This document shows, piece by piece, positions 150 to 4,640 of a DNA stretch of 4,640 nucleotides. The notes beneath the pieces are model-generated. The model saw nothing but the letters and a program-made list of their open reading frames with translations. It was not told the DNA's origin and ran no database searches. Positions within the stretch are counted from its first letter, which is position 1. Each line of letters begins with the position of its first letter. This DNA comes from a virus (lineage: Duplodnaviria > Heunggongvirae > Uroviricota > Caudoviricetes), in the IMG/VR virus record IMGVR_UViG_2541047778_000009; one strand, written 5' to 3'. A program made the translations under genes and the position numbers.

Positions 150-657
150 CTAGCATATTTACAGCATCACGAAGCGGAGTCCTGTCATCAACAGATGTTT
201 TCTTCCGTGCATTTGCTGCCTCTCCCTTTGTCCAGTAGTCATGCAGCACAGTAAAGCATTCTTCCTGGTACTGAATCAGTTTATCGCGGATGTCAGCACG
301 AACTTTCTCAGGGTTGATGCTGAACAGCCATCCATTTAACTTCTTCAAAGGAAGGCAGAGTAGCTTACGAAGCTTACCATCAGCGGCAACCATGTTCATA
401 TGAACACAGTTGAATTTGCTAATCTGCTTCATGAGTTTTGTTTGCTGCGTTGACCAGCTCATTCCGAGGTTTTCAACGATTGGCTTCATCGCAACATATG
501 CAACTCCGGCAGCCATGGCGGTGATAATTTGCTGACCGTTGAATGGCACGTAAGAGGTGTTCACTGCTTCTAAAATTGCTATACTATTCATGTTGGTTTT
601 TCTCCACGGATTTACCGACAACCGAAGCCCTGACTGTTCCAGCAGTTGGGGCTTCAC
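82..657 (-). CDS. Phage antirepressor-like protein (P22 Ant N-terminal domain-like), possibly C-terminally truncated
   Basis: 191-codon ORF with a GTG start at 657; an alternative ATG at 591 ([21 protein letters not shown]...) lies about 10 nt after a GGAG. The segment FNGQQ...[14 protein letters not shown]...[13 protein letters not shown] resembles phage antirepressor N-terminal domains from memory (not searched). It sits directly downstream of the arc-like gene on the same strand, as ant does in the P22 immI operon. The last ~12 codons and the stop are encoded inside the inverted repeat (85..122). Confidence 0.55.
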
Positions 658-823
658 TGTTTTGATTTCTTTGCCGCATCAAGCATCACTTCTGAAAACG
701 TGCGCTTGCCACTGAATACTCTTTCTCTTCTCAATTTTTCGTTCGTGCCAAATGATTCGCCATGAACAAAATTTGGTCTTAAAATGGTAATCGCAATCTC
801 TTTGACTACTGCATCCAAGCGAA

Positions 824-976
824 TCACACCGTTACCCCCTCTCTCTTCAGGCTGTCTATCAGGCGCTTGATAACCTCTGAGTTAAACGACCTGCACTCTT
901 CCTTTGCCCTGCTACCGATAGCATCCTTTAACGACTGCGGCATCCTTACCAAAATCTTACTTATTTCTTTCTCCAT
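824..976 (-). CDS. arc: Arc-like ribbon-helix-helix transcriptional repressor (50 aa)
   Basis: From the ATG at 976, preceded by GGAGGG 4 nt upstream on the minus strand. The protein MEKEISKILVRMPQSLKDAIGSRAKEECRSFNSEVIKRLIDSLKREGVTV aligns along its length with P22 Arc (FNLRWPREVLDLVRKVAEENGRSVNSEIYQRVMESFKKEG), including the N-terminal beta-strand and the GRSVNSE motif. The ORF-track extension to 1012 begins at a TTG with no ribosome-binding site and is not preferred. Confidence 0.8.
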   Translation of the reverse strand: MEKEISKILVRMPQSLKDAIGSRAKEECRSFNSEVIKRLIDSLKREGVTV

Positions 977-1014
977 GTTACCCTCCACGCAAACAACTCT
1001 TTTCGAATACAAAA

Positions 1015-1067
1015 GATAGCAAAGTGAGTATATCTAGTCAAAATTTTTTTGCATACACTTTGCTATC
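1015..1067. promoter_or_regulatory. Candidate operator: perfect 12-bp inverted repeat arms (GATAGCAAAGTG at 1015..1026, CACTTTGCTATC at 1056..1067) separated by a 29-bp AT-rich spacer, within the divergent arc-like / mnt-like promoter region
   Basis: Arms are exact reverse complements by direct reading. They lie in the 114-bp gap between the divergent starts at 976 (minus) and 1091 (plus), where P22 carries the overlapping Pant/Pmnt promoters and the Arc and Mnt operators. Promoter hexamers were not confidently assigned. Confidence 0.55.
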
Positions 1068-1090
1068 AAATTGAATACCAAAGGTGTTAT

Positions 1091-1339
1091 ATGGCAAAGG
1101 GTGTGTCAATTTCTCCAACTACGGTAAGAATCCCTGAATCTTTACGCGAGGCTCTTGCTGTCAGAGCATCAAAAAATGGTCGCTCTGTTAACTCCGAGAT
1201 CGTCATGATTTTGCAAGCCGCGATTGATGAAGATAGGTCGCCAAAGTCAGTTGAGTCATTTGCTCAGCAAGAAGCTGATAAATTCAAAGAGGCGCTACTT
1301 GAGACGCTAAAGACCATGTATGCTAAGGATGAAAAATAA
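1091..1339 (+). CDS. mnt: Mnt-like ribbon-helix-helix transcriptional repressor (82 aa)
   Basis: From the ATG at 1091, preceded by AAGGTG 4 nt upstream. The protein MAKGVSISPTTVRIPESLREALAVRASKNGRSVNSEIVMILQAAI...FKEALLETLKTMYAKDEK matches P22 Mnt (83 aa) in length, the N-terminal RHH region (FNFRMPMEVREKLKFRAEANGRSMNSELLQIVQDAL) and the C-terminal helix (LKDLYKK). It is divergent from the arc-like gene as in P22. The ORF-track start at 1049 is a TTG extension and is not preferred. Confidence 0.8.
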   Translation: MAKGVSISPTTVRIPESLREALAVRASKNGRSVNSEIVMILQAAIDEDRSPKSVESFAQQEADKFKEALLETLKTMYAKDEK

Positions 1340-1875
1340 TGCTGCACACAATTCATTTCTTATGCCCTGTTAACACTGCCACTGTTGGGCAACTTCAGAA
1401 CCACTGTCTCACCGCATTATCTCAAGGCGCAACTGAATTAAATATCCATATATCAAGTCAGGGAGGGGAAACTGCTGCTGGCTTTACTGCGTATAACTTT
1501 CTTAAGTCACTCCCTGTTACCGTTAGAACTCACAACATAAGCAATGTTGAATCCATAGCTAATATCGTTTTCCTGGCTGGCTCAGAACGTTTCGCAAACC
1601 CATTATCAAGATTCCTGTTACATCCTCTATTATGGTGCTTTGCCTCCCCAGCCGCCGACCATGCCAGATTGAGAGAGTACGGGAAATGCCTCGATAACGA
1701 TCTTGATCGCTTCGTTGAGACGTTCAATATCGACATCGGAACCCATATTAGGTGGGCATCCCTGATAGCAGACTCGACCATTTTGGATGCTAACAAGGCT
1801 CTTGAGCATGGCATAATTAATTCCATAAAAACTGCAAGGCTGGCATCCAATCAGGCAAACTGGTGGGTTGTTTGA
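1339..1875 (+). CDS. ClpP-fold (S14-like) serine peptidase-like protein, 178 aa, translationally coupled to the mnt-like gene
   Basis: The ATG at 1339 overlaps the mnt-like stop (TAATG). Manual alignment to E. coli ClpP: NIHISSQGGETAAGFTAYNFL against [21 protein letters not shown]; a candidate nucleophile Ser72 (codon 1552..1554, context NVESIAN against GQAASMG); His95 (codon 1621..1623, LLHPLL against MIHQPL); a candidate Asp145 or Asp150; and C-terminal ANKALEHGIINSI against APEAVEYGLVDSI. Homology is judged by eye only. Confidence 0.55.
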   Translation: MLHTIHFLCPVNTATVGQLQNHCLTALSQGATELNIHISSQGGETAAGFTAYNFLKSLPVTVRTHNISNVESIANIVFLAGSERFANPLSRFLLHPLLWCFASPAADHARLREYGKCLDNDLDRFVETFNIDIGTHIRWASLIADSTILDANKALEHGIINSIKTARLASNQANWWVV

Positions 1876-1899
1876 TGGGTAAATCATGATTACTCCTTA

Positions 1900-1926
1900 T
1901 AAAAAACCCACCTGACGGTGGGTTTA
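1900..1926. terminator. Bidirectional intrinsic terminator between the convergent genes at 1339..1875 (+) and 1924..2373 (-)
   Basis: Stem ACCCACC (1906..1912), loop TGAC, stem GGTGGGT (1917..1923). On the minus strand the stem is followed by six T (complement of AAAAAA at 1901..1906), a strong terminator for the YafO-like operon. On the plus strand it is followed by TTT only, so it is weaker there. The hairpin overlaps the minus-gene stop at 1924..1926. Confidence 0.7.
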
Positions 1927-2373
1927 GTCAAACATAGTGTTTCTAAAGTCTCTCGCATACCCTGCTAACACTCTCATTCTATTATGATTGTTAGCAGACA
2001 TGTGAGCTACAGGATGAAAAAGAGCAATCAATGAATACCTGTTCTCATCAAAAAGATTTTGTGCATAAACGAGAGCGGTATTGGATGTTTTATGCCACTG
2101 CAACTTTTGCGGTGTGCTGATATCTGTGCCATTTTTTATTGGCTCAAATTTATTTTCACCAATTGCTAAATGAAGGTGCATAAGGCCTGCATCTTCAATA
2201 TCAGGAGGTCGATGATAAGAGGTGTCTCTGCCAAAATAGCTGGGCAACGTTCCCGTAGACTTGTAGATGATAAAATCATCTACAAGTGTTTGTTTTAAAT
2301 CAGGAAACTCAACAAAAACCGGGGAGAAAAAATAGTCAAAACTATCCTGATTATATTCCACGGTTACTTGCAT
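1924..2373 (-). CDS. YafO-family type II toxin-like protein (putative ribosome-dependent mRNA interferase), 149 aa
   Basis: ATG at 2373 with GAGG 6 nt upstream. Motifs DDFIIYKSTGTLPSYFGRD, HLHLAIGEN, ALVYAQNLFDE and LIALFHPVAHMSANNHNRM parallel the E. coli YafO sequence as recalled from memory (DFISYKRDGVLPDIFGRD, HIHLANEN, HLVYCQGAFDE, LLIAILKPEPHKLARDNNQM). It is the second gene of a tightly spaced two-gene operon (8-nt gap). Confidence 0.6.
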   Translation of the reverse strand: MQVTVEYNQDSFDYFFSPVFVEFPDLKQTLVDDFIIYKSTGTLPSYFGRDTSYHRPPDIEDAGLMHLHLAIGENKFEPIKNGTDISTPQKLQWHKTSNTALVYAQNLFDENRYSLIALFHPVAHMSANNHNRMRVLAGYARDFRNTMFD

Positions 2374-2381
2374 GTTTTACC

Positions 2382-2948
2382 TCAGTGGAAGTTACCAGAG
2401 TGAAACACACGAGTCCCGTGCTCAGCAAGCGCACGCAAACCAGCCATATCTACGGAACTATCAAAAACAACCGGAACACATGAGCGTTGTTTAATAAGAC
2501 TATTCAGGTTGGTTACGGCAGATCTGGCATCAGCAACAACGATATAGATATCTCTTGCGATCTCTTTAAAATCAGCAGAAGCTTCTTTGAATACCGATTT
2601 CATTGCCCCTTCAAGTCCTCTCAATTGATGCTCTATCAATCGAGACTTTTCTGGTTCAATGATAGACAACACATTGTCTACATTCTCATCGGTAGCGTTT
2701 GCAAGAACACGATAAGCGTATTTCAGCATTCGAGACAATTCTTTAATCGAAGACACCGCCTCATGAAGCTCATCATTAGCCCGTTCACTGCTGAATGAGG
2801 ATTGATGGTAAGCGTGCTGAACGTTATCAGTAACAACCACCTCACAACTGAACGCAGAAGCTTGCTGTAATAGCAAACCTATTGCGACTCCAGCTTTGGC
2901 AGCGTTCAAGCTAAACATTTCATCAATCCCATTAGTCTCATTGCTCAT
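2382..2948 (-). CDS. Hypothetical protein (188 aa), upstream operon partner of the YafO-like toxin; candidate non-canonical antitoxin
   Basis: ATG at 2948, preceded by a near-perfect Shine-Dalgarno AAGGAGG 5 nt upstream. The ORF-track start at 2978 is a TTG with no ribosome-binding site. Stop TGA at 2384..2382, with the SD of the downstream toxin overlapping it. No family recognised by eye; predicted mostly helical with an acidic central region. It is not YafN/RelB/DinJ-like in size or sequence. Confidence 0.6.
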   Translation of the reverse strand: MSNETNGIDEMFSLNAAKAGVAIGLLLQQASAFSCEVVVTDNVQHAYHQSSFSSERANDELHEAVSSIKELSRMLKYAYRVLANATDENVDNVLSIIEPEKSRLIEHQLRGLEGAMKSVFKEASADFKEIARDIYIVVADARSAVTNLNSLIKQRSCVPVVFDSSVDMAGLRALAEHGTRVFHSGNFH

Positions 2949-3015
2949 ACAAACCTCCTTCTTATCGGAGATTATCAATAGCTATGCATCCATTGAATAC
3001 ACGCTATGCGCAATA

Positions 3016-3123: not shown

Positions 3124-3474
3124 GTGAATGCTCAGTCTGTCATCATGGTTTTCCTTGGGCTGATTGTCGCAAAACTATATCCAGACTGGTGGAAAGGGGC
3201 ATTAGCTACTGTCGCCATCTATTTGCTTTTATCCATCGTTAAGCGATCACTCGCTGAGACCGTAAATCAAGCAAAACGTTTCTCATTTAAGAGTTTAATA
3301 AACTATGTTACTGGGCTTATTTTTTGCCTTTCAATTCTGATCGCTTCGGCTTTTTTGCCCGTATCAATAGCTAATTTTTTTGGCGCACCATATGAGGTAG
3401 GTTATCTATTCTCTGTTTCCTGTCTTGCCATTGCTCTTCTTTACCTGTGGACGAGATCAAAGAATAAAAATTAG
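3124..3474 (+). CDS. Small integral membrane protein (116 aa, about 4 predicted TM helices); candidate superinfection-exclusion (SieA-like) or immunity protein
   Basis: GTG start at 3124 with AGGAGG 5 nt upstream. Hydrophobic stretches: VIMVFLGLIVAKLY, ALATVAIYLLLSIV, LINYVTGLIFCLSILIASAFLPVSIANFFG and VGYLFSVSCLAIALLYLW. It is convergent with the large gene at 3492..4640 and ends 17 bp from its stop. Its position relative to mnt/arc/ant matches sieA in P22. Confidence 0.6.
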   Translation: MNAQSVIMVFLGLIVAKLYPDWWKGALATVAIYLLLSIVKRSLAETVNQAKRFSFKSLINYVTGLIFCLSILIASAFLPVSIANFFGAPYEVGYLFSVSCLAIALLYLWTRSKNKN

Positions 3475-3491: not shown

Positions 3492-4640
3492 TTATTGAGC
3501 TTCTTTTTGTGATGCCTGTGCGACTCTGGTGAGCGATTGTGTGACCGTACTGATCGCTCTGTCATATGCTGTGCTACCTTTTGGCGTATTTGCCAGACGT
3601 AACAAGGCATTTCGTATAACAGGGCTTTCGTATGCCTTCGCAGCTCCTCCTACGACACCAGCAGCAGGAACAACAAACGCAGCCGTTTTTAGCATCCCCG
3701 CTAATACTGCTGCGTTTATGATGCCACCACCAACTAACAATCCATAAAGCTGCTGACCATTTAAGTTTTGAACGTTCGCTTTTGCCGCGTGTCTTGTATC
3801 GTTGAGGTATTTAATAACGCCGTCCAGTTCCTTTCCATGTACGCCTTTAAAGAAAGTTGCTGATTGCTTCCTGTTCCGGTGTAACGCATTAATAAACTTT
3901 TCAACACTAATATTTCCAGACGGATCAGTCGCCTTATCTACAGCATTCTGAACTATGGCTGCTCGTGCGTTTTGCCTACCATTGTCATCCAGAAGCCTGT
4001 AAAGCTGAGAACGTTCTGATGGGTTTTGGCTAAAAACGAGTTTTGTTACATCCTCAGGTGTAGCCTTGCCGCTGGCTATTGCCTTTTGAACGCGCGTTCT
4101 TCCCATCATGTCATTGAATCTAGCCCATGAGCGATCAACCCTAGACATATTGGCAGCTTCTTCTGAGCCTAGTTTTTGGGATACTGCTTTTTTCATATCC
4201 GCTGTATATGCCTTGTAGACAATATCGCTGGCTTTCTGGAGCGTGTCTTTATCAACAGTCTCGTTTGAATTCATGAACCGCTTTCGAAGGTCAGTTCTGT
4301 TTTCTCTCGCCAGACGCAGGTCATTGGGTCCGCTGGTGATATCGTCTTTAAATTGCTGCAAGACTTTTACCGCGGCTCTATCCTGAGATTTGCCCGGGCG
4401 GCTTAACACGGCAATCTGATTGTCGATAGCTTTTACCGTGTTTGAGAGATCGACAGGGGTATCCCCCATAGCGTCAATTATGCGGTTATATCGCTTTCCT
4501 GCTGCCTCAATGAATTTTTGTTGCCCTTTAGTCGCAGATTCATAATGAACCGCCCCGGGTTTCCTGGAGAGTGTTTTATCTGTGAACTCAGGCTGCCAGA
4601 TCATCGTTTCCGATGGAAGCATAATAAGCTTTTTCTGCTT
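3492..4640 (-). CDS. Large helical, charged protein with a C-terminal hydrophobic Gly/Ala-rich helical hairpin; probably 5'-partial; candidate phage DNA-ejection protein (P22 gp16-like position) or membrane-active toxin
   Basis: ORF track gives 376 aa from the ATG at 4622, but the frame has no stop between 4623 and the window edge (KQKKLI) and no convincing SD precedes the ATG, so the true start may lie outside the window. The hydrophobic segment LYGLLVGGGIINAAVLAGMLKTAAFVVPAAGVVGGAAKAY is encoded around 3630..3750. The first 26 codons after the ATG lie inside the inverted repeat. No family recognised by sequence; the function is inferred from composition and synteny. Confidence 0.7.
   Translation of the reverse strand, partial: KQKKLIMLPSETMIWQPEFTDKTLSRKPGAVHYESATKGQQKFIEAAGKRYNRIIDAMGDTPVDLSNTVKAIDNQIAVLSRPGKSQDRAAVKVLQQFKDDITSGPNDLRLARENRTDLRKRFMNSNETVDKDTLQKASDIVYKAYTADMKKAVSQKLGSEEAANMSRVDRSWARFNDMMGRTRVQKAIASGKATPEDVTKLVFSQNPSERSQLYRLLDDNGRQNARAAIVQNAVDKATDPSGNISVEKFINALHRNRKQSATFFKGVHGKELDGVIKYLNDTRHAAKANVQNLNGQQLYGLLVGGGIINAAVLAGMLKTAAFVVPAAGVVGGAAKAYESPVIRNALLRLANTPKGSTAYDRAISTVTQSLTRVAQASQKEAQ
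4545..4640. repeat. Right arm of the perfect inverted repeat (partner 27..122)
   Basis: See the left arm. Identical over 96 bp in inverted orientation, and it reaches the window edge. Confidence 0.9.

Follow-up and report, generated by a model that had tools for sequence, protein, structure and literature searches.

We analyzed a 4,640-nucleotide (nt) stretch of DNA from a virus of the Caudoviricetes (IMG/VR record IMGVR_UViG_2541047778_000009), hereafter the window, and found that an open reading frame (ORF) of 178 amino acids (aa) on its plus strand (1339..1875) encodes a short paralog of the protease subunit ClpP, with a Ser-His active site and without the N-terminal axial loop or helix A. 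The gene overlaps the end of mnt, the maintenance repressor gene in the immI region of a P22-like Escherichia coli prophage. The protein is a phage-borne addition to a known family of short ClpPs, and RefSeq already labels it as a Clp protease subunit. We consider it fairly probable that the gene is prophage cargo, a "moron" captured as a cassette behind mnt, and that its product would be made in the lysogen as an accessory peptidase, using Ser72 and His95 and either altering Clp proteolysis or acting alone.

A Ser-His variant of ClpP

An earlier annotation made from the letters of the window, here called the sequence-only reading, had aligned the 178-aa protein by eye with the ClpP core, and profile and structure comparisons both bear this out. 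The protein matched Pfam CLP_protease (PF00574) over residues 24-165 with 44.4 bits against a cut-off of 20.2 (E = 2.2e-11), and its AlphaFold2 model, computed with 64 homologues, had a pLDDT of 94.1 and a pTM of 0.90. In Foldseek searches the model reached TM scores of 0.82-0.84 to the ClpP structures of E. coli, S. aureus, and others, showing the ClpP alpha/beta fold with the handle helix, while the search against viral structures returned nothing but distant ClpP-like proteins of at most 25% identity. The NCBIfam equivalogs of ClpP (TIGR00493, PRK00277, and others) scored 19-40 bits against cut-offs of 228-361. Compared with canonical E. coli ClpP (MEROPS S14), the protein keeps the fold (TM about 0.83), the aligned Ser and His, and the length of the handle region, but the two are about 20% identical and the window protein lacks the catalytic Asp, the axial loop, helix A, and the aromatic residues of the docking pocket.

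The sequence-only reading had also proposed a catalytic triad of Ser72, His95, and either Asp145 or Asp150, and of this only the first two residues stood. Ser72 (codon TCC, 1552..1554, plus strand) aligns with Ser97 of E. coli ClpP and His95 (codon CAT, 1621..1623, plus strand) with His122, and both were invariant among the 64 close family members and 141 representatives of the wider family over which they were scored. Asp145 and Asp150 vary across the family. The place of ClpP Asp171 is taken by Ser146 (1774..1776, plus strand), and this column holds Gly, Ala, Arg, Glu, or Pro among the 141 representatives, with Ser as a further residue in the family. With Ser and His invariant and the canonical Asp absent family-wide, the family is a Ser-His variant of ClpP.

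The shortness of the protein, which had been remarked on before, lies at the N-terminus: about 25 residues of mature ClpP are missing, and the predicted structure opens with strand 1 (E2-7) and continues directly into the helix equivalent to ClpP helix B. Residues Y60, Y62, and F82 of E. coli ClpP, which we take to be the aromatic residues of the pocket where ClpX and ClpA dock, align with N35, H37, and S57. The gene has evolved under purifying selection, with a dN/dS of about 0.08 against an 80%-identical copy at a dS near saturation. At the other end of the protein, the C-terminal NWWV motif (residues 173-178) is near-invariant, with Trp175 conserved in at least 90% of the family, and the model shows it as a terminal beta-strand.

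The top match by both structure and sequence was ClpP1 of Pseudomonas plecoglossicida (PpClpP1; PDB 9UXT), with a Foldseek TM score of 0.93, 38% identity, and a phmmer E value of 1.6e-35 over residues 3-175. PpClpP1 is an N-terminally truncated protein of 183 aa with the active-site residues Ser73, His96, and Pro151, of which Ser and His are essential and the third is dispensable; it forms a homotetradecamer with an axial pore of 42.7 Å, its peptidase activity is about 13-fold below that of the canonical ClpP2, it does not bind ClpX, and alone it left casein and GFP-ssrA undegraded in vitro (PMC12900304). PpClpP1 and ClpP2 combine into a stable mixed tetradecamer of higher activity, in the presence of ClpX as well (PMC12900304). 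The 178-aa protein has every feature of PpClpP1 that can be read from the sequence (a length of about 180 aa, the truncated N-terminus, Ser72 and His95 at the positions of Ser73 and His96, and a nonacidic third residue), and we therefore placed it in the "short ClpP" (PpClpP1-like) family. The two differ in the third position, which is Pro there and Ser in the window protein, and in their setting: PpClpP1 was described as a bacterial ClpP paralog, whereas the window gene is prophage cargo joined to mnt. More loosely comparable are P. aeruginosa ClpP2, Listeria ClpP1, and M. tuberculosis ClpP1P2, divergent paralogs with weak or absent activity on their own and no direct ATPase docking (PMC12900304). 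These are chromosomal, about 200 aa long, and keep Asp or Asn in the third position, whereas for the window protein we infer any mixing with the host ClpP.

The junction with mnt and expression in the lysogen

The gene upstream of the ClpP-like ORF (1091..1339, plus strand) encodes an 82-aa repressor of the Arc/Mnt ribbon-helix-helix (RHH) family (Pfam Arc, E = 9.5e-11), named "Arc family DNA-binding protein" in RefSeq. Its alignment with P22 Mnt spans the whole protein, C-terminal helix included, at 36% identity (E = 7e-14), in keeping with the Mnt-like label given to it earlier. By its sequence and setting it is a genuine P22-type immI Mnt repressor: the Arc/Mnt RHH is followed by the C-terminal helix, the gene is divergent from arc and ant, and the sar RNA is present. 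Its place beside arc, sar, and ant does not fit the suggestion that the RHH protein is a regulator of another kind.

The stop codon of mnt and the start codon of the ClpP-like gene overlap in TAATG (1337..1341, plus strand; sequence GATGAAAAATAATGCTG), the TAA lying at 1337-1339 and the ATG at 1339-1341. The overlap, reported already by the sequence-only reading, was confirmed from the sequence and from RefSeq, which annotates the identical two coding sequences in identical DNA (locus L004, 9091-9339 and 9339-9875). The terminal part of mnt contains a Shine-Dalgarno sequence, AAGGA (1325..1329, plus strand), spaced 9 nt from the downstream ATG at 1339. Of the 52 copies at 79% protein identity or more, 48 have the identical stop/start overlap, which, being kept behind six different N-terminal types of Mnt, is not a chance arrangement.

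Given its own Shine-Dalgarno sequence and the TAATG overlap, the ClpP-like gene is expected to share transcription and translation with mnt in the lysogen, where it is probably expressed from the promoter of mnt, Pmnt. Three observations support this expectation: mnt is one of the genes for which prophage expression is anticipated (PMC2629481), no consensus promoter was found on the plus strand inside mnt, and the junction is conserved. Coexpression of the two genes, as proposed earlier, is thus plausible. The promoter search was a simple scan, which found no plus-strand sigma-70 consensus in the arc-mnt intergenic region or inside mnt (1091-1339).

Downstream, the ClpP-like gene is followed by a bidirectional terminator hairpin, AAACCCACC-TGAC-GGTGGGTTT (1894..1915), which separates it from a convergent gene for a YafO-like toxin. 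Folding of the RNA from both strands gave z scores of -4.2 and -3.7, with a U-run after the stem on the minus strand. The hairpin was missed by the terminator scan, probably as the stem absorbs part of the T-run, and was confirmed by folding.

A mobile cassette in the immI region of P22-like prophages

The whole window is found as a single contiguous stretch of 100% identity in E. coli SCU-116 and other complete genomes. It corresponds to immI, also called the "ant moron" region, in a P22-like prophage that is integrated at the tRNA-Arg/intS site beside an acyltransferase gene. The same prophage is intact in E. coli S88 and APEC O1, and in SCU-116 and about 10 further genomes it persists as a remnant at argW/intS bracketed by insertion sequences (ISs). 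At both of its ends the window consists of the inward-facing end of an IS3-family copy; the two copies are inverted with respect to each other, and they cut ant short at 122 and gene 16 at 4544. These copies explain the terminal inverted repeat of the window (1-121/4545-4640), which we considered as an assembly artefact and rejected as such because both are present in complete genomes; it also follows from the truncations that the listed ORFs 82-657 and 3492-4622 extend into IS sequence. The ClpP-like gene is undamaged in the IS-flanked remnant despite the truncated ant and gp16.

The order of genes is that of the P22 immI region with different cargo. P22 has tailspike, ant, and arc, then mnt, ORF59, and sieA, followed by gene 16. 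The window holds the truncated ant (minus strand), sar, a 57-aa ORF, arc, the mnt-like and ClpP-like genes (plus strand), and the terminator; beyond that come a YafO-like toxin gene and a gene for a 188-198-aa protein (minus strand), a gene for a 116-aa membrane protein (plus strand), and the truncated gene 16 (minus strand). The ClpP-like gene, which is 3' of mnt and co-oriented with it, is thus in the slot that ORF59 and sieA have in P22. Both systems have the arrangement of tailspike, ant, sar, and arc, then mnt with its cargo, then gene 16, and in both the cargo stands 3' of mnt in the direction expressed in the prophage (PMC2629481, PMC10883804). In P22 a gap of about 100 nt separates mnt from ORF59, whereas the window has the stop/start overlap, and P22 sieA encodes a membrane protein, whereas the cargo here is a ClpP paralog.

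We compared 118 loci with the gene, drawn from genomes, viral contigs, and annotated phages, and searched all their ORFs with profiles for an Arc/Mnt-type RHH protein within 1.5 kb. The 52 copies whose proteins are at least 79% identical, which make up the E. coli clade, all had one; the 66 more distant copies had none. The survey thus did not uphold the conserved RHH-peptidase module that the sequence-only reading had envisaged, as the pair is not conserved beyond the E. coli clade. The Mnt proteins before the close copies belong to six types that differ in the N-terminal, DNA-binding part, one of them near the N-terminal sequence of P22 Mnt.

Nucleotide comparisons (blastn) delimited the unit that is shared between these loci. 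The last ~40 nt of mnt including the Shine-Dalgarno sequence, the ClpP-like gene, and the terminator (~1296..1925, plus strand) are 97-99% identical across different immI backgrounds. The left edge of this segment lies at 1296-1299 in four backgrounds and at 1247 or 1258 in two, and the right edge at 1897-1925, at the terminator. Beyond it we found just short aligned segments, mostly of 78-84% identity, one background sharing the 5' region of ant at 94%; otherwise the immI regions show no relation or fall below 85% identity. High identity is thus confined to a cassette of about 600 bp, which therefore moves between immI modules. One cassette-bearing module belongs to the lambdoid siphophage PhiR12_1, where immI lies between tail genes. 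We also considered a functional tie between the ClpP-like gene and the YafO-like toxin gene and rejected it: the genes that follow downstream are not the same in phiv205-1, EC.P3, and PhiR12_1, and the homology stops at the terminator.

Of 5426 complete E. coli genomes, 128 had the ClpP-like gene, in every case chromosomal, and the carriers include the K1 ExPEC/APEC strains S88, APEC O1, and CE10 and the type strain ATCC 11775. Among 50,697 records of cultured phages, it was present in just 6.

Solitary copies in other prophages

Members of the family at 52-75% identity stand by themselves and are encoded on the other strand from the genes around them. We found them between the lysis cassette and terminase in prophages with Klebsiella-type P0042 and Leclercia-type P0007, between HNH/terminase genes and a LysC-like gene in E. 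coli, between N and erf/ssb in prophages with Proteus-type P0060, within a Mu-like tail module in Pantoea, and between lysis and tail-fibre genes in Chromobacterium. The insertion positions thus number five or more, and in all of them the gene is on the opposite strand. The arrangement with P0007, seen in three loci (L123-125), has in addition a genuine ClpP-type prohead protease of 284 aa beside portal and capsid, which matches the short ClpP gene only at E = 0.002. Origin of the short gene by a recent duplication of this resident protease was rejected on this comparison.

The gene thus has the features of a moron in its variable presence and position, its discrete cassette, its opposite strand, and its terminator hairpin. 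The solitary and opposite-strand copies at varied positions, and their coexistence with a prohead protease, are hallmarks of a moron; neither a structural gene nor a system of two genes would show them. In a clade of E. coli short ClpPs of 186 aa (loci L110-L117 and L119), a conserved 182-aa protein is always encoded 79 nt upstream on the same strand (e.g., 2219-2767 in L119). This protein had no match in Pfam, and its gene may be another kind of partner for these short ClpPs.

Possible roles of the phage-borne ClpP

The explanation that we favour is that a cassette of about 600 bp has been captured directly behind mnt and that its product would be an accessory subunit in the lysogen. By analogy with PpClpP1, the protein would most likely assemble as a wide-pore heptamer or tetradecamer, which could act as a weak, ATPase-independent peptidase; alternatively, a ring of the phage protein could stack on a ring of host ClpP, and the mixed barrel would change Clp proteolysis in the lysogen. 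The candidate gains for the lysogen would be stability of lysogeny, exclusion of other phages, and fitness under stress. A more specific and decidedly speculative form of the idea is that the phage would supply a substitute ClpP subunit, whose catalytic Ser-His ring without ATPase-docking elements would stack on the host heptamer to give a one-sided ClpXP or ClpAP of altered specificity or rate, stabilizing lysogeny or excluding superinfecting phages, and with its production tied to Mnt by translational coupling; such a machine, if real, would resemble a swap of proteasome subunits.

Several points weigh against an accessory subunit of this kind. The proposed oligomeric state and hetero-assembly draw on a 38%-identical homologue from another genus, and the sequence of the ring-ring "handle" differs from that of E. 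coli ClpP, so the mixing may not occur. The simple promoter scan gave no consensus Pmnt; similar scans upstream of two solitary copies gave no consensus promoter either, which leaves independent expression a conjecture. We nevertheless rank the accessory-subunit explanation first and regard two of its rivals as live.

One live rival, which we judge unlikely, is that the protein would serve in stand-alone defence or superinfection exclusion: as an open-pore, ATPase-independent peptidase made in the lysogen, it would degrade unfolded or incoming proteins of superinfecting phages, such as ejection proteins, without involving host ClpP, and proteolysis would do what P22 SieA does by blocking injection. 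The gene lies in the lysogen-expressed slot that sieA holds in P22 (PMC10883804), its copies in other prophages take positions typical of morons (the lysis-terminase gap, beside N), it is rare in cultured phages and common in prophages, and the homologue PpClpP1 has a wide open pore. Against this, the gene pair and its neighbours matched no PADLOC defence model, which does not help the defence role suggested by the sequence-only reading; PpClpP1 on its own failed to degrade casein and GFP-ssrA; and relatives occur also in contigs, the Massilia loci among them, where no phage genes are obvious nearby. The other live rival has the phage subunit as a modulator or poison of the host enzyme, capping or mixing with ClpP rings and lowering ClpXP or ClpAP activity to stabilize phage or host proteins. 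Lowered Clp activity in the lysogen would be comparable to the effect reported for lambda RexB. The loss of the ATPase-docking elements and the mixed tetradecamers of PpClpP1, itself without ClpX binding, would suit such dampening; in the sole tested case, that of PpClpP1, however, the mixed complex is more active and not less, and the invariant Ser and His argue for selection on catalysis. We hold this rival to be distinctly improbable.

The remaining two explanations are essentially excluded. A toxin-antitoxin or abortive-infection pair, in which the RHH protein would neutralize or tightly regulate a toxic peptidase, is suggested by the stop/start overlap and the RHH-first order, which are like those of type II toxin-antitoxin operons, and by the pairing in every copy of the E. 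coli type. The distant copies, however, stand alone, the RHH protein is a Mnt homologue beside arc, sar, and ant, and the six unrelated DNA-binding types of Mnt with a recombination joint about 40 nt before the ATG argue against a coevolving pair of proteins; we regard this explanation as very improbable. Even less credit is due to the view that the gene is a remnant or spare of a ClpP-type prohead protease, as annotated in phiv205-1. Profile matches point in this direction: the top PHROG match is phrog_94, "head maturation protease" (E = 7e-21), and NCBIfam Clp_rel_HeadMat (NF045542) matches with E = 5e-13, its score of 49.3 bits being below the threshold of 120. Prohead proteases of these families are likewise phage-encoded ClpP-fold domains without the axial loop, but their genes stand between those for portal and capsid and share their orientation, and the proteins are longer or carry a fusion to scaffold or capsid, none of which holds for the window gene. 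It lies outside the head module, as the sequence-only reading had pointed out, in the immI region and on the opposite strand, and its product has no scaffold-like C-terminal extension and a cellular ClpP1 as its nearest relative. In the intact S88 prophage, the portion of the head module that was retrieved has no annotated head protease, and to our knowledge P22-type assembly uses no head protease. Where a real prohead protease is present, in L123-125, the short gene exists beside it and resembles it only distantly.

Neither "head maturation protease" nor, in its housekeeping sense, "ATP-dependent Clp protease proteolytic subunit" is therefore the right database label. If the gene is expressed in lysogens, the prophage would add a subunit to the central ClpP protease of its host or a rival of it, a route of lysogenic conversion that is unexplored as far as our literature searches found. 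The searches returned no paper on this phage gene and no description of short ClpP as recurrent prophage cargo or of its fusion to mnt. The sequence-only reading had gone further and taken the module to be undescribed; besides the naming in RefSeq, a family member has been solved and studied since 2026 (9UXT, PMC12900304), and PMC2629481 gives a description of the variable "ant moron" region. The assays of the PpClpP1 study, namely LLVY-AMC peptidase activity, copurification with canonical ClpP, and inhibition by bortezomib, are directly applicable, and the question is therefore cheap to test.

Other features of the window

The rest of the window contains further elements of the immI region. 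The sar antisense RNA (592-658, plus strand) matched Rfam RF00262 over its full length with 83.9 bits; it overlaps the start of ant and has a terminator hairpin at 624-655. Together, sar, arc, and mnt make up a complete P22-type immI control set. The 57-aa ORF between arc and ant (654-827, minus strand; "hypothetical" in RefSeq), which overlaps the arc stop by 4 nt, had no family match, and P22 has no such gene.

On the far side of the terminator, the homologue of YafO-family toxins (1924-2373, minus strand; Pfam E = 3.4e-22) lies 8 nt downstream of the gene for the 188-198-aa protein (2382-2978, minus strand; phrog_8416), whose function is unknown. No YafN-like antitoxin stands beside the YafO-like gene in the window, and the two genes may form an atypical toxin-antitoxin or defence pair within the moron region. 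The predicted membrane protein of 116 aa (3124-3474, plus strand) adjoins gene 16, where P22 has sieA. We detected neither similarity to P22 SieA (E = 0.29) nor a family match, and the protein may be an exclusion protein analogous to SieA.

The arc-mnt intergenic control region (977..1090) contains a Pant-like promoter on the minus strand (1041 to 1013). The predicted -10 element of Pant is overlapped by a perfect 12-bp inverted repeat, GATAGCAAAGTG/CACTTTGCTATC (1015-1026/1056-1067, arms 29 nt apart), the arms of which are candidate half-sites of an Arc/Mnt operator. Nine-mers resembling the repeat recur at 1075-1083 and 1091-1099.

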